This document shows positions 6,467 to 25,703 of a stretch of 64,000 nt of DNA, one piece after another (the stretch's first letter is position 1; every line of letters begins with the position of its first letter). A program made the position numbers and the translations under genes. The stretch spans positions 1,860,001-1,924,000 of the forward strand of contig CM102289.1 in assembly GCA_046563655.1 (NCBI GenBank). The letters run 5' to 3'. This DNA comes from Yuukianura sp. NJ FZ-2021. Its lineage: Eukaryota. The notes under the pieces were generated by a model that made no database searches, was not told where the DNA came from, and worked only from the letters and a program-made list of their open reading frames with translations.

Positions 6467-6615
6467 ATGCAGGATCCGGAGAAATACGAGAAGTTCAAAT
6501 CAGCCGCTGCACGGGATGCTGAGGAATTTGTACCGTACTTGGTGAAACGTATGACTTGGAAAACGAACGAAGCCATCTTGGATTTTGGTTGTGGCGCGGG
6601 ATCTACCGCGTTCAA

Positions 6616-6655
<40 letters not shown>

Positions 6656-8787
6656 AAATACATCCTTCGTTCAAATACATCCTTCCAACTGCTGAGGCAA
6701 ACTACTCAGTAGTAGAAGGAGTGGACATTTCTCAAAAAATGGTGGAGTATGCGCAGGCGAAATATGCGCATCCCCTTATGCAGTTCTGTCAAGAAGACAT
6801 TCTGGATTCACATTCGCCTTTTCTTGGAGGAAAAAAGTTTGATAAAATTTTCTCCGTTTATGTTTTCATGTGTATCGTAGACTACAGGTAAGCAATTCGT
6901 CAATGTGTATTCAAGATTCACACTTTTTAATAACGAGTTTAAAAAACGCAAACATTTTTGATACTTTTTTTTAGAAAAGTTATTAAAAAGCTGTTCGACA
7001 TTTTGAAACCTGGAGGTGAGATTGGAATCACAGTTAATACGGATTGTCGGATTGGAGATTTCATCGAAGACTTGCTCAAACATCCTAAATGGAGTTGCTA
7101 TCTTCAAGTGAAACCGATTAGAAACGTTTGAACTAATATTAAGTAAACTGGATATACTTATGTGTTTACGTAAACTTTTCTAATATTTATAGGGTGAAGG
7201 TCCGCCATTTGCCGACTTTTATGGAACTCGAAAGCTAGAATCCGGGGAAACGTTTCTGCGCAAAGCTCTTTTGGATGCTGGTTTTGTTATCGACGAAATT
7301 CGCACAGAAGAACGACCACAGATAGATGATTTGGACACTTTAGCAGGTAATTGCAAGGTTATGTAACAAACAAACAGTTTTTGTTTAACAGGTTAGACAA
7401 TACCTAGGAGTTTCAAATTTTGTGGGTAAAAACGTTAAATCCAAAACAAACCGCTTCTACAATAAACGTCACATAATGAAAATTTTATGGCTTCATCTAA
7501 TAACCAGATTGGTTCAAAATTGGTTAACAAAATTGTTTTTTAGACATTTTTTATGAATCTCAAGGTATTGCCTAACCTGTTAAAGAAAAAGTTTTCGATT
7601 GTCAATACACCGTGGGATTTGCTCCTTATTAAGTAGCTTTAGCTACTTTATAAAAGTGTTTTTGTCCGTCATCACGTTTTCCGTCATATCCCCATAAGGA
7701 AAGCCGGTCCGTCATCGCGTTTTCCGTCATGGCATAGGGAACTCCATTGGTCATCACGTTCTCTGTCATGTCCATAAGGTAGGCCGGTCCGTCATCACGT
7801 TCTCTGTCATGTCCATATGATAGGCCGGTCCGTCATCACGTTCTCTGTCATGTCCATAAGAAAGGCCTGTCCGTCATCGCGTTTTCCGTCATGACATAGG
7901 GAAAACCATTGAAAAATGTTGAAAAACATCAGCACAATTATCTCGGAAACTACCGAACCGATTTCGTCCAGGTTTTTACCAATCAACAGCTCATGACCCG
8001 GGTGAGATCAAGTTTGCAAAATCATTCCGGTCAGTGACCTCATTCCGGGTCAAAATCGATCTCAAAGTTCACGTGAATTGTTAGATGGAGGAAGTGTGGG
8101 TATAAAAAACTCTGCTTGTGGGACTGGAAAGGTAAATGGCATGGGAGTTGGTTTTCTGCTTAGCAAAAAATCAACTACGCAGCAGTTGACCAACACACTC
8201 ATGCACTGTCCACTTCCAGTCCTTCTGCTGTTGCTTCACCCGGATCCTACCTCTTCGCATCTTTGATAGACCTCACCCCTATTTCCACTGGGGGGTGAGA
8301 AATTAGGGGAAACACAGCCCCACTTCCCCCCGGGTGGCGCGGGAAAGTGGGGGCAACACACCCCCACTCCTCACGGGGGGCGGAGAGGTGGAAGAAAAAC
8401 ATCCCCTGTTTAAAAAAAACCTAAACGCTAAAGCTACTTTTTTATGTGCGGTTTACAACCGGTTTATTTCACTTTAACTTTACAACTTCCAGCGAAAAGT
8501 ATATGCCTACTTACATATTAATATCAAACGAATGTTCTGTCTAATTTGTTCGCAGCCGTATCAAATTACGTAAATTATGCAAATCTAAAAATCTTTGTTG
8601 TCATTTAGAACTTTTCGTATCCGTAACTCCATTTCTGCTAAAAATCCCAGCGGAACATAGAGCCGACCTCAAACAGGATTACCGCGCAGCATTATTGAAA
8701 CGCAGACCTTTGACCTCTGACGGCAGACCTAAGATTTATTCGACAGTAATTTGCTTGGCCAGAAAACCAGGAACAGCACCCAATTGA
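6467..8787 (+). CDS. Juvenile hormone acid O-methyltransferase-like class I SAM methyltransferase (frameshifted in exon 1 as assembled)
   Basis: Exons about 6467-6887, 6975-7107, 7193-7346, 8609-8787 with GT-AG introns. SAM motif ILDFGCGAG, then GVDISQKMVEYA, FDKIFS, LKPGGE and C-terminal ...ICLARKP. A 59-nt insertion (6619-6677) shifts the frame. Confidence 0.8.
7385..7585. mobile_element. MITE related to the CAAGGTT family, in methyltransferase intron 3
   Basis: Inverted repeats TTTAACAGGTTAGACAATACCT / AGGTATTGCCTAACCTGTTAAA, similar to the inner inverted repeats of 2852-3079 and 16611-16897. Confidence 0.6.
7629..8468 (+). mobile_element. Non-autonomous Helentron/DINE-1-like element
   Basis: 5' subTIR AAGTAGCTTTAGC with adjacent partial palindrome (7631-7648). 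GTCCGTC motif and about 40-bp tandem repeats (7664-7900). 3' subTIR GCTAAAGCTACTT (8427-8439). 3' stem-loop CGGTT-TAC-AACCG (8449-8461) and T-rich ends. Confidence 0.8.
7664..7900 (+). repeat. About 40-bp tandem repeat (about 6 units) inside the Helentron-like element
   Basis: Recurring unit GTCCGTCATC(A/G)CGTT(T/C)TC(C/T)GTCAT...CATA.G....GGCC. Confidence 0.85.
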
Positions 8788-13960: not shown

Positions 13961-15668
13961 ATGCAGGAATACGGAGGGAGTTCGTGTCCCGAAGAAGGCA
14001 ATACTTTTAATTTGTCAGTTGAAGATGAAGTTAGAACCCTTCGTAGCAGCCTGGAAGTTCTGCGAGCAGAGGTGGACATGAAGATGCACATAATGGAACA
14101 GATTCTCAGCACTAGAAATGGTAAAACCTTATTAAGTAAATTTACTTCAATGTAGAAATATTCTAATTGAAATAACTTTTGTTTTCAGAACAATTCTTAG
14201 TCCAAAAGAGACTGATTGAACGGGAGCATGCACTTTATGAAAATGTAATGACACACTGGAGAAGTACTGCTGAACTAGCTGCAAATGGAAAGTCCATTCG
14301 GTACTCAAAGAGCGCACAAGACTTCCATGTTGTTGAAAACCAAAGAATGGATTCCAGTACATCGATTTCTGCCAAGCGTAGTTCAACATATGCTGCTTTC
14401 GCTTCTGACACCGAAAGGACACGGCTCCGAGCAAAGAGATTTCGAGGTATGCACGCTATACTTTTTCTGATACAGTTCTTTAGTAAGGCATAACCGAAGA
14501 TTCTTCGAAGAAATCGTGGAATGTATAACATGAAACACATTACTTTATCGTATTAGCCTCCTCATATGCATCAAGTTTCGGTGGTAAAACTGAAACTGTT
14601 ATGCCAGAACAACCTTCCGTTGAAACTCATTGGCAAGTTGACGATGACACAAATGACGACACTCTGGGAAGTGCAGATGATCTCTTGGACACGGAAGTGG
14701 AAGCTAACCCAGACTCTGGCGGAGAGTCGGATGACGCTGAATACGGTAAGATGAGAAATCACTATTGCAAATCACAAACATAAAGTTGTTGTTTTTACGT
14801 TGATCTAGCAGATGCTGATGCAATTAGCAGTGGTATGGAGAAACGCGTTTTCGTTAACTTCTATTCCGCTGACCCTTCTACTAACCCGGAAGAAGGCAGT
14901 AGTGATCCAGTTTGGATTCATTTCTTACACGAAGAAAAAGGAACGACAGCGCTCTGCAAGCATTGTGACGAAAAAGGTTTCCAGAAAATCTACAAACTAC
15001 GCACCCCAAGCATGGGAGTGTTGCGAAAACATTTAAAACGAACTCATAAAATAATTATTGAAACACCTCCTCTTCCAGTGCCCGAAAAAATTGAAACACC
15101 AGGTACTAGAGACATTGGTTTTTAAAATTAAGTGAACCTGTAGGTGTGATATGCAGTTAAATGTTAAGTATTTTTGGTTTTCTCAACTCTGTAGAAGCGG
15201 AGAAGGGACGACGTCGTATAATGCCATTCCTAAGGCACAATGATCACTTGTACACACGTTACACTCATCGAAACTTCGTAGAATACTGGCGATGTCGAGA
15301 GAAGACCTGCAGTGGCAAACTAGTCAGACGAAATGGCACTATTCAGTGTACAGGGGAACATAACTGCCTCACTACTGCCCAAGAGTATGATTTTTTTAAA
15401 TTAATTGTTTCACTCTCTTTCGCTTGAATTGTAATGTGTATTACGGATTTGCAGTTGCGACGCAATAATTTTTCGTGAAAAGATTCGGGAATTGGCAGAA
15501 ACTGAACCAACTCTTCCACCAGCCGACGTCATTGCGGCTGCCAAGGTTGGAATCCCTGAAGACGTTCTGGAGCTTGTTCCGAATGACGATTCTCTACGTA
15601 GAACAATTCGCAGAATACGACAAGCTCTCGAGTCTGCTGCAGCAACTACGGGTCCAGACTGGACATAA
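13961..15668 (+). CDS. BED zinc finger + FLYWCH-like (C2HC) protein, paralog 1
   Basis: Six exons (about 13961-14120, 14189-14447, 14557-14745, ~14809-15102, 15195-15383, 15455-15668). BED motif DPVWIHF...CKHC...LRKHLKRTH. FLYWCH-like LYTRY...YWRCREKTC...EHNC. C-terminal FREKIRELAE...VPNDDSLRRTIRRIRQ. Confidence 0.85.
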
Positions 15669-16140
15669 TTCCTCTTGGAAGATATCTCCATTTTTATAGT
15701 AGTGAAAGTTCAAATGGCTACGTAGATCTTTTTTATTTCATGCAATAATGTTTTTAACCACAACTGTATTATTAGTAGATGTACATTTTATGTATCTAAT
15801 GACTCAAAATATTCCTGCAAAAGGAAGTCGGAAAGCCCTTTGTTCAGTATTTATTATCAACCACATTACAAGAGAATTTTGATTTTCATTCTGTAAGGCA
15901 TGTATTGTAATATAAGTTGTCAGATAACGTAAAACTTGTAATAAACTTAACCCGGTTTATTCAAATTCAAAGCATTTACCACCTAACTGCAGTACAGTAG
16001 TTTCAACCTTCAAGATATGTTTTTTTAAGAAACGTTGCATAATGTGCTGCTTTTTCAATCTAGAAACTAGGCTTTCATATTTGAGACTAGGAAATAGCAT
16101 TCTAAAGTTCGACTACTGATTCGAGGTTTGCGACTGCATT

Positions 16141-18127
16141 TTATCCGAGCATGAGTGTCAAGTCGATTACCTTTGCCAGGATGACGTCGCTGATTAAAAC
16201 CAGAAAAGTACAGGGGCCAACGTCGAGCCATGGACCCATCGGAATGTTCAATACTCGAATACCCCGCAGCATTTTCTTTTCGTAGAGAGTCAATTGTGTA
16301 CTCTGCAACACATGTCTTGCCTGGCGCTCCTTTGTCTCCAGACCTACAATCGTTCTGCAAATTTGGTCCAATGCCAGCACGCCAGTTAGACTAAAAGATA
16401 CTGCTGAGGCCACGTTGATAGCTCCAGCATCATGAAATCGAATAACGTTCACGGTGCTCATAATGATGAGTCCAAGGATCAGGGCTACAGCGTACGACAG
16501 GGCTAGCGAGAAATCCCTGTAAACGTTGTTCCAAATGTACAGAGCCTTGTACCAAGAGAAATTTGCGATTCTCCTACTGGTGTCAGTCCTAAAACAAAAA
16601 TGATACTAGCCAAGGTTCCTTGACAACGAAAAGTTGTTGTTTTATTTGTTTTTAGTTAACAGGTTGGGTAATACCTCGCATGTTGACCAAAAAAACGAAA
16701 AAAAAAAAATAGTACCAATCCAAAAAATTGATATCAATTCGTATTCAAAATTTAACAAAATGGCTCCATTTCGATGACTACAATGTCCTCAAATGAGCAT
16801 CGAAAATTTTTGGCAGAATCGAAAAAACATGAGGTAGTACCCAACCTGCTAACGAAAAACAAACAAAACAACAAGTTTTTGTTGTCAAGGAACCTTGATA
16901 CTAGCAAAGTGTATACATGCGTATACAGTTTCTGTAGGTACCGTATATGTTGCATGCTATCCGTATTCTTTAAACTAACATGATTGATACGTACCGTGAA
17001 TCATGTAATGCTATGTATGCATGTATTTGTGTTATTTAAGTATTTTGCACCTATATATATTATCTATGTATCTGAGTTATCTGTATCTGATATGAGTTAT
17101 GTCTAATGTATGTATTATGTCAATATATCATTTATATGTATTCAGTCATGTATATGTTTATGTTGTACATGTTGGAAAACCATTTATCGGATTAGCATAC
17201 CCATTCATTGTCTTTGCTTCCAGCTCTACTTGTTCAAGCATGCAGGCGAACAAGGTTGTGCAAATTTTGAGAGCGACGCAATTGTAGATGACGAGTGCAT
17301 CGGATACCATCACAAATGCAACAACAATCAGGAACGCCGCCAATACTCCGTAGAATAAGTAAGACTTCGTCTTGTAGGCAACGATCTTATGTAAAATTGC
17401 AAATGCATGTAGAGGGTAATATCCAGCAAATGCAAAACTGCCCACAGAAGTTACAACAACAGCTCCCATCATGAGGGCGAACATCACTACCGTAATTACT
17501 GCAGGGTCAGTTCGATTTGCCCATTTCAACTTTAAATATTTTCCTAGACGAGAGTTTACAGGGCAAGAATTAGTGTAATCTTTTTAAACTACAATAATTC
17601 CCCGTAACAAAATATACTCTGATGGTATAATTTAATAGGACAATTAACTCTATCGAGGTATGCGCCGTAAAGTAGCGTTTCAGACAATTAATTCCCTCTT
17701 ACCGTAATTTATTATTATATGCATTGTTATAATTTTGGAAAGTATTTTTACCAAGGACGTCGTTAGTTGCGAATGCGCAGTTGAAGAATGCACAGAAGAT
17801 GTTGCCGTGCACCAGGGCCAAGACATGAAAAGCAATACAAAGTGTGAATATATAAGCCATGCTCATAGCAATGATCCGTTCAAGACGGTTGAGGTCGACG
17901 GCATACAAGTAGTCATAGAACAAAAAGGTTACTATGGTCGATACATGCAGCAAAATATGGACTGCCGAAACGACGTGATTCAAAATGCGAAGTCCTTTCC
18001 AATTTTTATTGACAACTCCAAGATTTTGACGGTTTTTGGTATACTCTAACTTGAAACTTTGGAGGCCTAAATAGTACGCCCCGTTGATGAATAGAATGCA
18101 TCTCAATGTCTGACTGCACAGAAACAT
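16141..18127 (-). CDS. Divergent multi-pass membrane protein (chemoreceptor-like), 3-exon family member 1, about 388 aa
   Basis: Exons 18127-17752, 17543-17201, 16588-16141 splice in frame (phase 1 and phase 2 introns). Multiple hydrophobic segments. C-terminus IPMGPWLDVGPCTFLVLISDVILAKVIDLTLMLG. Confidence 0.7.
16611..16897. mobile_element. MITE with 8-bp TSD (hAT-like)
   Basis: TIR CAAGGTTCCTTGACAAC / GTTGTCAAGGAACCTTG and perfect flanking duplication ATACTAGC (16603-16610, 16898-16905). Lies in intron 2 of the 16141-18127 gene. Confidence 0.9.
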
Positions 18128-18809
18128 GTTTGAGGCTTTCGAACTCCCAAAATTTTGGTTTCAAAATGCCATGCATAGGAGATAGGACGTGATGCTTCCA
18201 ACACCACAGTTTACCTGGTAATATTTAAGTTTTTCCATTAGAAAAGGATGGTAATTCCATCAATTAATAGTAATGAAACAATATCGAGTCGTCTTGAAAT
18301 GGAAAGGAGGAAACGAGAAGAGAAAATGTTGTAAATTTTTTCCACGAGGCATGAGGTAACCACAGTGTTTTTAAATATTCCAATGTGAATTCTATTAGAA
18401 AATGGGCTTTTAACCATTTGGGCGTAACTACAACCTCCGGTCTAGCATATTTTTTGCCATTACAGTAAATTAATCATAAACCCTCACCGGTCGCATATCT
18501 TATTATTTACAACAAAACTGGAAGAGCCTATGGCAAAACTGGAAGAGCCAGTTTAAAAAAATAGGGTTTTGGCAGTGGTGCTGATGTGAATTGTGAATTT
18601 TATTTTTAAAAACTTGAAAAATTCCTAGGTGTTTTTTTTTGTTTGATTTTGATGAACATTAGTTTCCCGATGAAAATGCAATCGCAATTTCATGAACAAT
18701 CAAATGAAACCTCAAAATTCGCGTGTTAATTCCCATAAGGACTTTCAAAATTTTGATTTTTTTTTATTGAAATTTTTTGTTTAGAAATTTTTTAGAAAGT
18801 GGTCAGCGC

Positions 18810-19741
18810 CATACCCACTCCTCGTCCATTGGGCCTTACACAAGAAGTGTGGAGGGTCTTAGGCAAGACAGTTGCAAAACACGACAAAGTAAACACGCGT
18901 ACTATTGAAGAATTAAGTATTTGTATAACGTTTATTTGTTATTATAAATGATATAATATAAATTAATAATATAAATATGTTTTTCATATTTATTTAAAAA
19001 TTTTTGAATTTTAATATAAAAGACAAACATACACCTGCCAATAATGGCAGGTTGAGAATTTAAGAAGTTATAAGGTTTTAAAGTAAGTAGATTTCGTTCA
19101 GTTCTTTTCCGGAGGGCAGCGTGCCCTTATATAAATATAATTATTATTCAATAAAATAAATTCTAAAAACTAGAAAATATGGATTTCTTTTTTTCTGACA
19201 AATGACATTCTAGAAAATTATTTTTCGACAAAACAATGTCATTGTTTGACCCCCACTGAAGAACTGGAACGAACGAACGAAATCCAACCATATTTCCAAA
19301 ACTTCGAATTTAATAAATCACTCTTGAATTTCTAAAAAAAAAAAAACTGGAACGAAATCTTGAAAAAACTTACAAACCAGCAAAACTAACGTCCCAATAT
19401 AGGAAAAAAAACTAGAAGAGGGCCCCTTTCTTTCCAGTAGTAGAGTTTTTCTAACGTCCAAACTGGAAATAGTTTTTCTCTTCTTTTGCTTCGAGAAATA
19501 CAATGGAAAGAGTTGTTTCAAGGTTTAAATCTTAAAACAATTTTTTTTTCTTCCAAATTTACTTTTTGCTTAGGGGATGCACAAGGAATGCGCAAAATAT
19601 GAAAAAATTAACATAAATATAGCGTACCAGTTATTTAACTTCGAAATTTAAGTGTGGGTAAACTTTTAGTGTTTTGCAACTTTCTTGCCTAAGACCCTCC
19701 ACACTTCTTGTGTAAGCCCCAATGGGCGAAGAGTAGGTATG
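18810..19741. mobile_element. Non-autonomous DNA transposon, about 75-bp TIRs, 8-bp TSD (hAT- or P-like)
   Basis: TIR CATACCCACTC...CTTACACAAGAAGTGTGGAGGGTCTTAGGCAAGA...GTTGCAAAACAC is mirrored at about 19670-19741. Perfect TSD GTCAGCGC (18802-18809, 19742-19749). AT-rich interior with no ORF. Confidence 0.9.
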
Positions 19742-20155
19742 GTCAGCGCAACAAGAGAGCTTAACTGGGGTCATTTGAGGTCATTTGGAGCATACATTTT
19801 GGTTGAGTCTATGGTGCGAATGTTGCGACTCCTTGCGACCGTAGCTTGTCTCCGTAATTGTGTAGCATACTCAGAGGATTAGTGTTACCCCAAGGAGAAA
19901 AAAAACAAAACATTGATTTTATCTAAATAAATCTGCCCGTCATATTGAAACATGAACATTTATTAATGTTAGTTAAGTTAGATTGATTGTTGAACGCGAA
20001 GACCTGGTTAATGACAACCATTTTTTTTTGATTGGTAAGTATTGAATTCCGCTGGTGAAAGTTAGCTATTGCCGTCGAGCTCGACGCCCGCCAATCGTTG
20101 GGATTGGGAAGACTAACTAAAATTCATTCACCGTTCCATCGACCCTTAGCCCAAT

Positions 20156-21711
20156 ATGGATGAATCAGTTGACGATAAAGTTCGTGACCTCCAGAAGAGT
20201 CTGGACCTACTTCGGGCAGAAGTGGACATGAAGATGAGCATCATAGAGCAGATTCTCAGCACTCGGAATGGTGAGGTTTAAGCGACAACTTTTAAACTTG
20301 CACGGAACTGTTCGTCAATAATAATTAGTTAATTTTTGTAGAGCAATTCGTGGCACAGAAGAAGTGGATCGAACGAGAACATGCTCTATATGAGAATGTT
20401 TTAGGTCATTGGAAGCACGTTACCGGTCTTGCCGCAAGGGGACACTCCATTCGCTACTCCAAGCAAACGCAAGACTTCCAGGTTGTGGAAAGCCCTAGGC
20501 AACATGTACTTCCAATGCTCATGAAACGTTCTGTATCAACAGCAGGGTTGAATTCCGAAACAGATCGACGTATCGTCCGAGCAAAACGCCTCAGAAGCGC
20601 TAATACAAGTATTAAAGCAAAGAACAGTGGAAAATCAGTTTAATTTGTTAAATTTTAAACGGGTTTTTGATGTTCTTGAAGCAGGAGAAGAAGTTCAAGA
20701 CGATACAGAACCCACCTACCATGTCGAAGTTAGCCATGATGTAGATGAGTTTGACGACACACAATTAGACACGAACTCTGTTGGAGATTCAGAGCCTGAA
20801 TATGGTATTCTACGAAAACCTTCGCAATCGTTTCGAATTTAACAAATCGTTGTGCGTACAAATTATTTAGGTGATTTCGGTGATGGACTAGAAAAACGCG
20901 TATTTCTGAACTTCTACTCCGAAGAACTAACAAATCCGGACGAGGGAAGTAGTGACCCTATTTGGTTACATTTCTTACGAGAAGAGAAAGGTCAAACTGC
21001 ACTTTGTAAACACTGCGATAATCAAGGCTTCCAAAAAATTTATCAACTGAAAGTACCAGGGATGGCGGTCCTGCGAAGGCATCTGAGGAGGATTCACAAA
21101 ATTTTTATTGAAGCGCCACCGGCTCCCCCTTCTCCTGAAGTAATCGAACCTCTGGGTACGCTATTTAACAGTATCAGCTCAACGTTTTCTTTTTTTCACA
21201 ACTTTTTTCTATTGTTACTTTACAGACACGAGTCAGCCTCAGTTGCGTAGAGTCACTCTTCTAAGACACAACGATTACTTGTACAAGCGTTACAAGAAAC
21301 GTAATCAAACGGAGTACTATCGATGTCGGGACTCTGATACTTGTGGAGGCAGACTCATACGTCGAAATGGACTACTTCACAACACTTCTGAGCATTCCTG
21401 TCTTACTACCGCCGCAGAGTAAGCAGTGTATTGTGCAGAATCTCATACCTTTGCATCTGGAATCTAATCCGACCATGAATGCCTCTCGTTTATCTAGTTG
21501 CGATGCTGCGGAATTTCGCGAGAAGATACGATCAATGGCGGAAACTTCGCCTCTTCCTCCAGCAGACATTATAGCACTAGTGAAAACTGGGTACTCTCAA
21601 GATGTTCTCGCACTTGTTCCAAATGACGATTATCTACGAAGAACTATTCGTAGAATCAGACAAACCATGGAATCGGTCACCTCTGCTAACAACCTCAACG
21701 ACTGGAGTTAA
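20156..21711 (+). CDS. BED zinc finger + FLYWCH-like (C2HC) protein, paralog 2
   Basis: MDESVDDKVRDLQKSLDLLRAEVDMKMSIIEQILSTRN; BED motif DPIWLHF...CKHC...LRRHLRRIH; LYKRY...YYRCRDSDTC...EHSC; FREKIRSMAE...VPNDDYLRRTIRRIRQ. Same exon layout as paralog 1. Confidence 0.85.
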
Positions 21712-22393
21712 TTGATGATTGAGAGGAGCAAAGCAAGAGGCGTGTCTTGATTTTATTATTAGGCAGGTAGGTTCGTTTTAATTAGATAGAAACTAAAGTT
21801 GTAAATTGCATTTGGTTTTAGCAAGATTTTCACGGATGTGCACCTAGGTAATTTTTAACAGATCATCATTTTTTCTTTCCTTTTTTTAACTACTACTTTT
21901 TTTTAAATTTGATTTTGACAAAGTAGATTACTTGTAGACTTTCAACCGTTCGTTTTTACGCAAATAATGTTTTAATCACGTAAGAATAAATTACTAATTA
22001 AGATTCATCTCTCTATTAAGGTAAGGTTAGGTTGAGATGTGTAGAGATGCGTGAAGCCCAGAATGAATTGGCGCAAATCTTAACCGTTCGATTTGTTGTG
22101 GAGTTTTGACATCAGGAGAGAGAGAGAGCAGAGCAAAGTTTATAAAGTTTGTTTTGGAATTCTTCGATTGATTCGGATTGGATTGGATTAAAACCTAATT
22201 TATTTCAAATTTGTCCATCAAGCAAAAGTAAAATTACTCACTCGCATTCATCGGTTACATCAATCGACAAGGTAATCAATTGTTTCTTACCTCAATCATA
22301 ACCGAAACAATTTAAACAGCTGTGGTTCCGGAACTGACTTTTTTTTTATCCGTGAAAAGTTTATTAGGTGATTCAAATCTTAGACAAATCGCG

Positions 22394-23994
22394 ATGGACC
22401 CAGTAGAGGATAAAGTTCGTGACCTACAGAAAAGTCTAAACATCCTGCGAGCAGAAGTGGACATGAAGATGAAAATCATGGAGCAAATTCTGAATACTCG
22501 GAACGGTAAGCTTAATAATTTGCAATATACGTACTACGATTTATATCAATTTGTTGTTTTTTAGAGCAATTTGTCGTTCAAAAGAAACTGATTGAAAAAG
22601 AGCATGCACTATATGAAAACGTCCTCAATCATTGGAGAAATACTGCTGAACTGGCAGCCACCGGGCATTCCATAAGATACTCTAGCAACTTACAAGATTT
22701 CCAAGTTGTTGCATACGCAACCCCAGACTCCGAATCTCCTTCGACGTCGACAAAACGAAGCTGCTCGTCAGCGTTTGCCGATCGAGCACGACTTAGAGCC
22801 AAGCGTTTAAGAGGTTATTAGCTAAATGACACAGCGAAGATGTTGAGAAATGAGACTTTGTGTATCTTATGAGACTTTGTGTATAGGTTCACTGGCAGAA
22901 GCCCCTCCGTTACAGAAGACTGAGACGATGCCAGAAGACGAATCACTGGCAGATCCAGAAGTTCATTGGGACATTGACGAATCCACAAATGACAATGATC
23001 CTTTGGGAAACATGGAAGATCAACGGTTCAGTGAGGTTGAAGGGAACTCGGGAGGAGAATCTGACGACGGTAAACTAATCAAAAACGTTTTTTCTTCTAC
23101 ATTGTCGTCATCATCGATTGGCGGAGTAACGTTTTTGTTTTACAGACGCAGACGAGTGTACTGGTGAAAGCGGATTTCAGAAACGTGTTTTTGTCAACTT
23201 CTATTCCGCTGACCCTGCAAATCCAGAAGAAGAAAGCAACGATCCAATTTGGCTTCACTTTCTGCATGAACAAAATGGAGCGGCTGCTTTGTGCAAGCAC
23301 TGTGATAAACGTGGGGTACAAAAGATCTACAAATTGGGAAATCCATCCTTCACTGTACTTCGCAAACATCTCAAGCGGAAGCACAGAATTATCGTGGAAG
23401 CTCCACCAGCACCACCGCCAACATTTATAGCAGAACGACCAAGAACCCAAGCATGTAAGCACACGTTCAAGCAGTAATTTTTTCAGCAGCAAAACCTTAC
23501 TTGATTCAAGTATTTTTTGTATTTTAGTATACAGCATACTCGGATTCCGGAAGTTCCATATCCTGAGACACAACAACTACTTGTACCAGCGATATTTCGT
23601 TAGAAACAGCACAGAGTACTGGAGATGCCGTGAATTTGAAACGTGCAGCGGCAGACTAGTCATGCGGAACGGTGTAATCGAGGAGACTTCCGAACACTGT
23701 TGTCTTACTTCTCCAGCAGAGTAATTTTGAAAAACGTTTTGTCACAAGTGAATTACGACTTGAATTTTTCTCTTTTTCTTTTACAGTTGTGATGCTGCTG
23801 AAATTCGTCAGAAAATTAGAGACATGGCCCAAAATAATCCAGAACTTTCGTCTGCCGAGATAATTGCTGCAGCTAAACTTGGATATGACCAAGACGTTAT
23901 AAATTTATGCCCGAACGATCACTCCCTTCGAGCAACAATACGTCGAATCCGACATGCCATGGAAGCTGGACCAAGTGCTGCTGATGCGGACTAG
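22394..23994 (+). CDS. BED zinc finger + FLYWCH-like (C2HC) protein, paralog 3
   Basis: MDPVEDKVRDLQKSLNILRAEVDMKMKIMEQILNTRN; DPIWLHF...CKHC...LRKHLKRKH; LYQRY...YWRCREFETC...EHCC; IRQKIRDMAQ...CPNDHSLRATIRRIRH. Stop TAG at 23992-23994. Confidence 0.85.
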
Positions 23995-24460: not shown

Positions 24461-25703
24461 TTAGGTGCGAACGTACTCCGCAACGTATGGCAGGCGACTG
24501 AGAGCCGGGTTCAAGAGGTCATGTGCAATCAAGTTGGCAGAAAATTCTTCAATGTCGGGTCGAATGACTTGAAATACTTGCGAAGCATAACGTTTTCCAA
24601 TGTAGTGGACCACAGAACCTAAAAAGCGTTTAATTTTTGAATTTTGGAAAAAAAAAATTTAAAACAGTAATTTTTAAAATATTTAGTTTTTGTTAACTTA
24701 CTCAGAAGAGCATTTCCTTCAAACAAGCCGCGAATAACCAAATTCATGTCGCCAATGCTCAAATTTTGATAAGTAATTTTCTCCACTTGCATAATTTCTT
24801 CGCCATCTTCGTTCCTTGCCAATTTACCTTGCATTTCTCCTTCCGCTCTCAAGTTGACTGTAGAAACCCGCCAAAATTTAATTCAATTTCATTTCATTTC
24901 GAATTTATTCCAAATTTCGAAAACTGAACTTACAAATTTCAAATCTTGCCGGTCCACTGCCAACGAGTGGAAAGAAGAATACGTTGCCGCCTAATTTGTA
25001 ATTTTCGGTTTCTACTTTAATGTGGGGCACTTCGTACAAGAATCGCATCTTCATGTTTTTAAGATCCGTGCGGAACTTGAGCATTTTGAAGTTGGTGAAT
25101 CCATGGATTTGTGTGTTCTTTGCATTTAATGTGATGTTAATTGGACCAAGTGAACGATCGTAGTTGAACTTTTCAATTAGAATTGGATCCAGAGGTTCAA
25201 CGTCAAGTGCGCTAAGTCCTGATCCAACTTGTGGCGTCAATTCTTTGACGATCTTGCGAAGGCAGTCGTCAATGACGGCGTTGTTGCCTTTCGGACATTT
25301 TCGGATCGGTCCGACCCATGTCACACCATTTTCTAAAAAGAACAATTTTTTACAATTTTTATACATTTTGGATTTGCATTTGGAATCCGGGAAACTACTA
25401 ATTCTAACCACATGAAATCCTTGAAACTGAAATTTTCTAAACTTTGAATCACAAAGCCTAAAATTATTGCAAATTCTTTAGAAAATGCAGAATTACTCGA
25501 CTTCGGCAATCCTTTTTTTTCAAACGGTCGTTTTTATTATGTAAACTAAAAATTTCTGAATAGGAAATTTTGAAAAATTAGATTTTGAAAGAGAAGAATT
25601 TATATTTACCGTCCGTGCGTTCTTGGATCTTATCTTTTTTGGGCAGCGCTTCAACCACTGCTAAAGCAGAAATCAAAACGCAAAGAAATTTAAGGCTGCG
25701 CAT
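24461..25703 (-). CDS. Takeout / juvenile hormone-binding protein (JHBP) family secreted protein
   Basis: Four exons (about 25703-25610, 25332-24934, 24858-24702, 24618-24461). Signal peptide MRSLKFLCVLISALAVVEA, N-terminal Cys pair (RKCPK...DDCL), LDVEPLDP motif and GLFEGNALL, all typical of takeout/JHBP. Confidence 0.85.

Follow-up and report, generated by a model that had tools for sequence, protein, structure and literature searches.

Three intact, intron-containing paralogs (g1, g2, and g3) lie on the forward strand of a 64,000-nucleotide stretch of contig CM102289.1 of Yuukianura sp. NJ FZ-2021, the whole of which we call the window and to which all coordinates refer. They are probably host genes in which a family-specific front half is followed by the N-terminal, non-catalytic portion of a Mutator-like (MULE) transposase, and their sequences suggest that the products act as DNA-binding, sequence-specific regulators of transcription or chromatin.

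Gene models and the shared front half

The predicted spliced models of g1 (13961-15668, 434 aa), g2 (20156-21711, 398 aa), and g3 (22394-23994, 417 aa) each comprise six exons without an internal stop, with GT-AG introns of 59 to 110 nt in identical phases (1,1,1,1,2) in 3/3, the splice sites being predicted from DNA. The exons of g1 lie at 13961-14120, 14189-14446, 14557-14745, 14809-15102, 15195-15384, and 15455-15668, those of g2 at 20156-20270, 20342-20608, 20682-20804, 20871-21155, 21226-21418, and 21498-21711 (the exon 2/3 boundary being the least certain), and those of g3 at 22394-22505, 22565-22813, 22887-23069, 23146-23454, 23528-23720, and 23787-23994. All three encode the same order of an N-terminal helical block, an acidic linker, a BED finger, a FLYWCH finger, and a helical tail, with pairwise identities of 55 to 60% overall, 59 to 78% in the four conserved blocks, and 24 to 48% in the linker. 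The preliminary description of one architecture shared by three intact paralogs is thus upheld.

The N-terminal block of about 75 aa, which in g1 spans the end of exon 1 and the start of exon 2 (14012..14322), is specific to the family, common to 15 loci in the genome, and predicted to form a coiled coil. Heptad periodicity across the whole block is a modest signal, reached by 86 of 5,000 shuffles, and is not significant for exon 2 alone. A homodimer prediction for the exon-1 helix scored 0.03, which speaks neither for nor against dimerisation. The block has no significant Pfam family; no BTB match was found on g1 exon 1 or on exon 2 of any of the three genes, and no BESS match on any exon tested. 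Searches of PDB sequences returned weak coiled-coil peptides for exon 1 (E>=0.13) and nothing for exon 2.

The fixed BED finger, which in g1 lies with the family's upstream motif at 14832..15071 in an exon whose phase-1 donor is at 15103, retains the tryptophan and all ligands (W...C-x2-C...H-x4-H) in all three window genes. Full-profile matches to zf-BED (PF02892) fell just below the Pfam cut-off of 20.6 bits in each of them (g1 15.3, g2 20.3, and g3 19.1 bits), and a profile of the family's finger matched the BED at the start of a hAT transposase at 97.5%. The likeness to a hAT N-terminal BED, implied by the preliminary description, is supported by sequence. No hAT catalytic core or C-terminal dimerisation domain was matched by Pfam on the exons scanned, and a PDB sequence search with the finger gave nothing significant. 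A word-based search with the BED exon for longer proteins found none, a weak negative, and the family's N-terminal block was absent among all 150 BED matches listed.

The FLYWCH finger and tail as a MULE transposase front end

Behind the BED finger, each window gene carries one cassette, formed by a FLYWCH finger exon (15195..15384 in g1, ligands C-C-H-C) and a helical tail (15455..15668 in g1). Pfam FLYWCH (PF04500, cut-off 23.6 bits) is matched at or above threshold in 3/3, with 23.6 bits in g1, 30.6 in g2, and 34.0 in g3. The same genome holds two intact MULE copies, 78% alike, with long repeat-rich inverted ends; one of these, L020, encodes a 473-aa FLYWCH+MULE transposase in a single exon, flanked by inverted repeats of about 290 nt that are reported as 100% alike over 291 nt. 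Aligned with the N-terminus of L020, the finger and tail of g1 are colinear, with 38 of 114 positions identical and the finger-to-helix spacing preserved; the range of identity to the resident transposase is 26 to 33%. A profile of the tail scored 37.7 and 37.8 bits on the two MULE copies, a value equalled by 0 of 2,000 shuffles and peaking at the post-FLYWCH position, and hhalign placed the tail profile against the MULE segment at 91.9%; this homology test covers a single transposase family. As these alignments indicate, finger and tail are one colinear block homologous to the MULE transposase N-terminus, the tail corresponding to the stretch that links FLYWCH to the catalytic domain, in agreement with the likeness noted earlier. 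Of the profile checks proposed for the three domain types, FLYWCH and the MULE front end gave positive results and zf-BED narrowly fell short. The last zinc ligand of the family's finger is a cysteine (H-x-C) and that of the resident transposase a histidine (H-x-H), so by this alignment the resident MULE is a relative of the donor rather than the donor itself.

An AlphaFold2 model of the g1 tail shows four helices (pLDDT 88.9), for which Foldseek returned no match at E<=0.001; the top VIA-align score was Z 5.8, inside the background of small helical bundles. TnsB, at Z 5.5, was dropped as a structural relative because its score also lies within that background, and matches to TAL repeats in a PDB sequence search were rejected because they added up many weak repeats, none of which contained a significant stretch. 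Modelling the MULE N-terminus from a single sequence reached only pLDDT 44, and that model was discarded. The tail has no significant Pfam family, and a word-based search with its profile for longer proteins found none, again a weak negative. With no clear structural match, a DNA-binding role of the tail is suggested by its position and its basic residues.

Family, selection, and transposon context

The preliminary description counted three genes, which is correct for the window and an undercount for the family: seven genes of this design lie in the genome, all on one contig, and at least 15 share the front half. In a second species, L029 shows the full design, and L027 and L032 represent the other subtypes. 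All eight FLYWCH-tail genes have intact models with every zinc ligand retained, and they fall on one side of a branch with 97/97 support in an unrooted tree built from the N-terminal block and BED finger only; a test of g1+g2+g3 monophyly neither supported nor rejected it (p-AU 0.12). Within the domains of these genes, 27 of 28 pairs are saturated at synonymous sites (pS 0.73 to 0.93 versus pN 0.19 to 0.39), and the single unsaturated pair has a dN/dS of 0.17 (46 synonymous and 30 non-synonymous changes; Fisher p about 1e-13). The FLYWCH-tail genes are under purifying selection. The remaining paralogs carry different DNA-binding cassettes at their ends, such as extra BED fingers. Of 19 family members, 15 have a phase-1 donor directly behind the fixed BED, and a scan saw none in the other four. 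As read from the exons, the front half of the family is constant and its transposon-type DNA-binding ends vary between copies. No synteny was detected between the flanks of L029 or L027, which lie on short contigs, and the loci tested in the present genome, and the upstream regions of the seven genes share no motif of 10 nt. Atlas searches for relatives yielded nothing beyond unnamed clusters or matches scoring below 0.9, and a search of mainly open-access literature, judged by titles, abstract openings, and main-text passages, listed no paper that describes such an architecture.

The absence of a DDE domain and of terminal inverted repeats around the genes, both reported previously, is borne out. 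Queried by tblastn at E<=1, neither the MULE core nor a hAT core (one hAT query, P0135) matched within the window, and the resident MULE core matched near none of the eight FLYWCH-tail genes, with the control L020 matched in both cases. The MULE domain (PF10551) is matched three times in the genome and not at all on the window's contig; a viral-contig scan with the resident MULE gave 0 loci. Among the 25 longest of 174 inverted-repeat pairs, none encloses a gene or the cluster, and no pair of terminal inverted repeats with a target duplication surrounds the genes among the inverted repeats examined. Between g1 and g2, outside the genes, lie a miniature inverted-repeat element (16611..16897; 67-nt arms) and a non-autonomous inverted-repeat element (18810..19741; 79-nt arms), each with arms 91% complementary and an 8-bp target duplication. 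The genes are intact and constrained by purifying selection, do not lie within a transposon, and have counterparts in a second species; they appear to have been retained by the host, as first suggested.

The genes might instead be dedicated transposon controllers, in which finger and tail still recognise the subterminal repeats at MULE ends so that the elements are blocked or silenced; the front half would contribute oligomerisation and another point of anchorage. Retention of the entire non-catalytic MULE N-terminus as a block is what such a role would favour, two intact elements with repeat-rich ends are present, the Muta1 transposase binds such ends (PMC5499845), and KRABINER binds the ends of its own transposon (bioRxiv 10.1101/2020.05.07.082677). 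We nevertheless regard this as unlikely, given that identity to the resident transposase is only 26 to 33% and a zinc ligand has changed, that genes with saturated dS and a second-species counterpart are old compared with an element that looks young by its inverted repeats, and that seven host genes stand against two intact elements. Moreover, MULE subterminal repeat words are not enriched, occurring 0 to 1 times upstream of the seven genes and 0 to 1 times in the window, and the two local elements do not resemble the resident MULE ends, so that the earlier suggestion of transposon-end binding found no backing in these sequences. A role as insulator or architectural chromatin proteins like BEAF-32, Ibf1/2, or Mod(mdg4), with oligomers bridging distant sites, is less likely still: the domains used by fly insulator proteins are indeed BED and FLYWCH, alongside one for multimerisation (PMC5094011), and the family layout echoes mod(mdg4) (PMC1702500), but every exon tested lacks a BTB or BESS match, and such a role would be a special case of the regulator reading from which sequence cannot separate it. 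That the genes are functionless cargo or remnants of a transposon (a Pack-MULE, or a BED+FLYWCH transposase minus its catalytic exon) is largely refuted, even though all recognisable domains are of transposase type, by the lack of enclosing repeats and of any catalytic remnant, the dN/dS of 0.17 in the young pair, reading frames that stay intact despite saturated dS, the conservation of introns, and the occurrence of an orthologous design in the second species.

Origin and working of the family

Returning to the reading of the genes as host regulators, the idea that they are a chimera of two transposon superfamilies stands as far as parts of both types are present; a direct fusion of two transposons is the less apt reading, and because the family is larger and modular we favour capture of a MULE front end by a host BED gene. 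The capture is best read as one event, its direction being inferred and the tree unrooted. An ancestral gene with the N-terminal block and BED finger would have had a BED exon ending in a phase-1 splice donor, downstream of which a FLYWCH-MULE landed and had its first ~130 codons spliced on; the catalytic part would then have been lost, and one intron would have come between finger and tail. A single capture would predate the split of the two species, with expansion to seven copies on one contig following. In the working protein, the helical block may mediate oligomerisation and a basic patch may direct nuclear import. BED together with FLYWCH-plus-tail may recognise a composite DNA site, and co-regulators may be contacted through the acidic linker.

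Fusion by splicing capture, with DNA-binding domains favoured, has precedent (bioRxiv 10.1101/2020.05.07.082677). In KRABINER, SETMAR, and PGBD3-CSB, splicing likewise joins a host 5' part to one derived from a transposase, with a preference for retaining DNA-binding domains, and the products are lineage-specific regulators (bioRxiv 10.1101/2020.05.07.082677); the family likewise combines in-frame GT-AG joins, in predicted models, with a dN/dS well under 1, by which host-transposase fusions are recognised. The host part here, in contrast, is an unnamed helical block with a hAT-type BED instead of a KRAB or SET domain, and what was captured is FLYWCH and the adjoining helices of a Mutator element, a word absent from the main text of bioRxiv 10.1101/2020.05.07.082677. 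The host, moreover, is an invertebrate, with the fusion predicted from gene models. Phantom and Muta FLYWCH-MULE transposases similarly follow FLYWCH directly with a helical segment (PMC5499845, PMC6446971), whereas the window genes lack DDE, terminal inverted repeats, and target duplication, and have a finger-tail intron, the changed ligand, and an added N-terminal block and BED. ZBED, BEAF-32, DREF, and Ibf1-2 also carry a hAT-type BED in a host gene lacking a catalytic core (PMC10027918, PMC5094011); the present family differs in having neither hAT dimerisation nor BESS domain and in possessing the FLYWCH+helical module and the N-terminal block.

The mod(mdg4) and lola/fruitless-type BTB loci place exchangeable transposase-type finger ends (FLYWCH, BED) behind a constant N-terminus (PMC1702500), and similarly, at the DNA level, ~14 cassettes that each end in a stop lie downstream of a single donor in a paralog on contig C5, and ~5 are arrayed in another on contig C3. 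Unlike mod(mdg4) and lola, the family has no BTB/POZ and has a fixed BED before the variable end; unlike mod(mdg4), the window genes keep the MULE helical segment and have one fixed cassette, and so BED and FLYWCH stand in one chain. Since sister genes have other cassettes behind the same donor, in the form of extra BED fingers (~14 in a row in one gene), swapping of ends would offer a route to new specificity, as in mod(mdg4) and lola behind BTB. It is a tentative extension, which we would not call likely, that an arthropod lineage has independently evolved an equivalent of mod(mdg4) around a previously undescribed coiled-coil scaffold, the donor behind BED serving as a socket repeatedly filled from unrelated transposons with a hAT-type BED, a Mutator FLYWCH with its helices, or perhaps a Brinker/pogo-type helix-turn-helix, as a fixed end or in arrays, with hetero-oligomers formed through the shared block providing a combinatorial DNA-reading code.

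Transposase capture is already known as a general process. The family described here would represent a natural regulator assembled from the DNA-binding parts of two transposon superfamilies, and because a close intact relative of the donor persists in the genome, the course of the capture can be traced at the level of single residues. Its members offer a series from single-ended genes to a BTB-less gene with ~14 putatively swappable ends, a mod(mdg4)-like array on a scaffold unrelated to BTB, by which the origin of such arrays becomes testable.

Architecture of the three window genes and their surroundings

The genes g1 (13961-15668, + strand, 434 aa), g2 (20156-21711, + strand, 398 aa) and g3 (22394-23994, + strand, 417 aa) were modeled from sequence with GT-AG splicing, each with six exons, identical intron phases (1,1,1,1,2) and no internal stops, and their proteins are 55-60% identical. 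Each carries a single copy of every module (helical N-block, acidic linker, fixed BED finger, FLYWCH finger and helical tail), with no additional cassettes found in the window; the common block architecture reported in the preliminary description for three intact, intron-bearing paralogs holds. FLYWCH reached or exceeded the Pfam cut-off in all three genes, and zf-BED was covered over its full profile in all three, though its scores (15.3, 20.3, and 19.1 bits) stayed below the cut-off of 20.6 bits; neither the N-block nor the tail had a significant Pfam family. Between N-block and BED sit a basic patch and the acidic linker, in which 17-28 of 51-105 residues are acidic.

Upstream of the cluster lies a SAM-dependent methyltransferase exon (6523-6888, + strand), and directly downstream a juvenile hormone binding protein (JHBP/takeout) gene (24908-25477, - strand; JHBP 96 bits), a neighbour that suggests an arthropod. 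Two inverted-repeat elements, each with an 8-bp target duplication, are found between g1 and g2 (16611-16897 and 18810-19741), the smaller of which interrupts hydrophobic, membrane-protein-like frames (16141-18160, - strand). Three such frames had no Pfam match, and they may be a divergent chemoreceptor.

FLYWCH, tail and BED finger compared with transposases

Searched with the g1 tail, the genome returned eight matches, comprising seven genes on the window contig and a 477-codon open frame on contig C1 (L020). The latter is an intronless transposase (Pfam FLYWCH 51 bits, MULE 62 bits) within an intact element (L020:3004-6081) flanked by ~290-nt inverted repeats rich in short tandem subrepeats, with no clear target duplication at the element ends inspected; a second intact copy in the genome is 78% identical over the N-terminus. 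In the two transposase copies, the stretch that follows FLYWCH scored 37.7 and 37.8 bits with a profile from six family tails, and the score peaked at that position only, with 0 of 2000 shuffles reaching it (maximum 9.0) and the reversed segment scoring <2; hhalign gave 91.9%. FLYWCH and tail of g1 co-align with the transposase N-terminus (38/114 identical) with the finger-to-first-helix spacing kept; its six counterparts in this genome share 32-38 identities over 111-120 columns, and the gene from a second species 23/90. Finger and tail were thus captured together, as a single block. The proposed resemblance of the tail to the post-FLYWCH segment of MULE transposases is thus well founded.

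The last FLYWCH ligand is C in all eight FLYWCH-tail genes (seven here, one from the second species) but H in the transposase. In this genome, six of the seven FLYWCH-tail proteins have D-W-T or D-W-S as their last residues (gene ends at window 15666 and in L018, L019, and L021), a conserved terminus missing from the transposase at the corresponding position and possibly a partner-binding tag. The tail is predicted to fold into four helices (pLDDT 88.9), for which fold searches returned no clear structural match. With the family BED profile, the finger at the N-terminus of P0135, a protein of 653 aa with zf-BED and hAT dimerisation domains, matched at 97.5% with 38% identity; since P0135 was selected from matches of that same profile, the match marks the finger as hAT-type and names no donor.

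Family extent, phylogeny and cassette arrays

The N-block occurs at no fewer than 15 loci in the genome (14 in another search) and the fixed BED exon at at least 15, the same ones, all counts being lower bounds. FLYWCH and tail are present on 7 of 15, all on the window contig: g1-g3, a further three near 2.88 Mb and a seventh near 0.13 Mb. The three paralogs first described are intact as claimed, but the family is larger than three, with seven genes of this design and at least 15 with N-block and BED. A metagenome scan yielded six loci, mostly with 70-80% exon identity to genes of this genome and hence from another species, including L029 (complete N-block, BED, FLYWCH and tail, introns matching), L027 (N-block and two BEDs, as in paralog L015) and L032, which groups with paralogs on contig C5. 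In an unrooted tree of 19 members, built on N-block and fixed BED only and omitting truncated L030 and L031, a branch supported at 97/97 separates all eight FLYWCH-tail genes from the rest, and the seven of this genome cluster together (99/96). A constraint grouping the second species' four genes was rejected (p-AU 1e-5). A second tree analysis agrees, and from these groupings the subfamilies are older than the species split. A single gain of the FLYWCH-tail module would be enough; the tree being unrooted, we infer gain and not loss because other members differ in their ends and the module is a piece of a transposase. All eight gene models are intact, and neutral evolution is contradicted by domain pN of 0.19-0.39 at saturated synonymous sites (27 of 28 pairs) and by dN/dS of 0.17 in one young pair.

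Other members carry different DNA-binding modules downstream of the fixed BED exon: a second BED in L015 (34.6 bits) and L027, and several BEDs in L013, L014, L016, and L017. Immediately downstream of one family BED exon, a Brinker-type helix-turn-helix frame (L012:7093-7350, - strand; Pfam BrkDBD 42 bits) is a candidate module, its splice link putative. In 15 of 19 members a phase-1 donor follows the fixed BED exon, and g1-g3 have a phase-1 acceptor at the start of their FLYWCH exon. The C5 paralog (L013 and L042, G000:C5:6885315-6896024, - strand), which has one more BED-like exon ahead of its N-block, carries about 14 cassettes after the fixed BED. Of these, 13 are BED-like (a phase-2 intron divides six, and one is seen as first half only) and one is a weak FLYWCH; nearly all end in a stop and most have a poly(A)-like signal. 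The C3 paralog has five, and both array genes are tied to the window genes by their common front half. That the donor acts as a splice socket, set on a scaffold other than BTB, and would yield a combinatorial set of DNA readers is a tentative reading that we consider rather doubtful.

Three further observations concern these loci. A BED-like exon with a phase-1 donor but no Pfam hit (L011:7993-8226, - strand) lies upstream of an N-block, and that paralog may begin with an additional finger. L016 (G000:C1:9.995 Mb) and L017 (C6:5.646 Mb) are near-copies of the array-type paralog, with fewer, partly decayed cassettes and similar downstream sequence, and look like recent segmental duplicates. Short frames at L035 and L040 (G000:C3:1.288-1.296 Mb), close together on one strand with two FLYWCH fingers, a weak BED-like piece and a C2H2-like one, may be a further array of alternative DNA-binding exons.

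Against 1.84 billion representatives, the BED exon profile gave 400 matches, and in none of the 150 listed was the N-block, family FLYWCH or tail found; eight of these 150 were single-exon fragments with the family motif in unannotated assemblies (three being L027-L029), and the N-block profile found four such fragments. The architecture had not been recognised as a named family in the preliminary description, and among the matches listed in the representative searches there was neither a named family nor an annotated ortholog of full length. Within the part of the literature covered, we found no account of a protein that joins BED to FLYWCH-plus-MULE-helix and none of this N-block, a point for which the domain tables of PMC10027918 may be relevant; the term FLYWCH is absent from PMC12062965. 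In animals, ZBED and FLYWCH host genes have commonly undergone lineage-specific expansion (PMC10027918).

Proposed transposase capture and its alternatives

We propose that g1-g3 are probably DNA-binding regulators of the host that arose when part of a transposase was captured: a host gene with N-block and BED would have gained, by splicing, the opening ~130 codons of a FLYWCH-MULE element, the remainder of which would have been lost. The N-block shows modest heptad periodicity (best period 3.55, reached by 86/5000 shuffles) and is predicted to oligomerise, and DNA binding by g1-g3 would follow from the BED and FLYWCH folds, for which it is established in the accessible part of PMC1702500. That the genes instead control MULE ends is unlikely, though a resident FLYWCH-MULE element persists in the genome, and an insulator function, as in fly proteins with BED and FLYWCH (PMC5094011), is more improbable still. 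Transposon cargo is the least credible: no inverted repeats among those shown for the window enclose g1-g3, as the preliminary description of absent TIRs had it, and its reported lack of a DDE domain likewise stands, with no MULE catalytic core near any of the eight genes and none of the genome's three MULE-domain hits on the window contig. Without DDE and TIRs the genes are not MULE transposases, and without BTB they are not members of the BTB loci; as far as the accessible text of each source goes, they would work in the manner of host-transposase fusions (bioRxiv 10.1101/2020.05.07.082677) and, at family level, resemble mod(mdg4) in layout (PMC1702500). The host gene cluster is real and ordinary-looking, and its origin is unusual and well supported.
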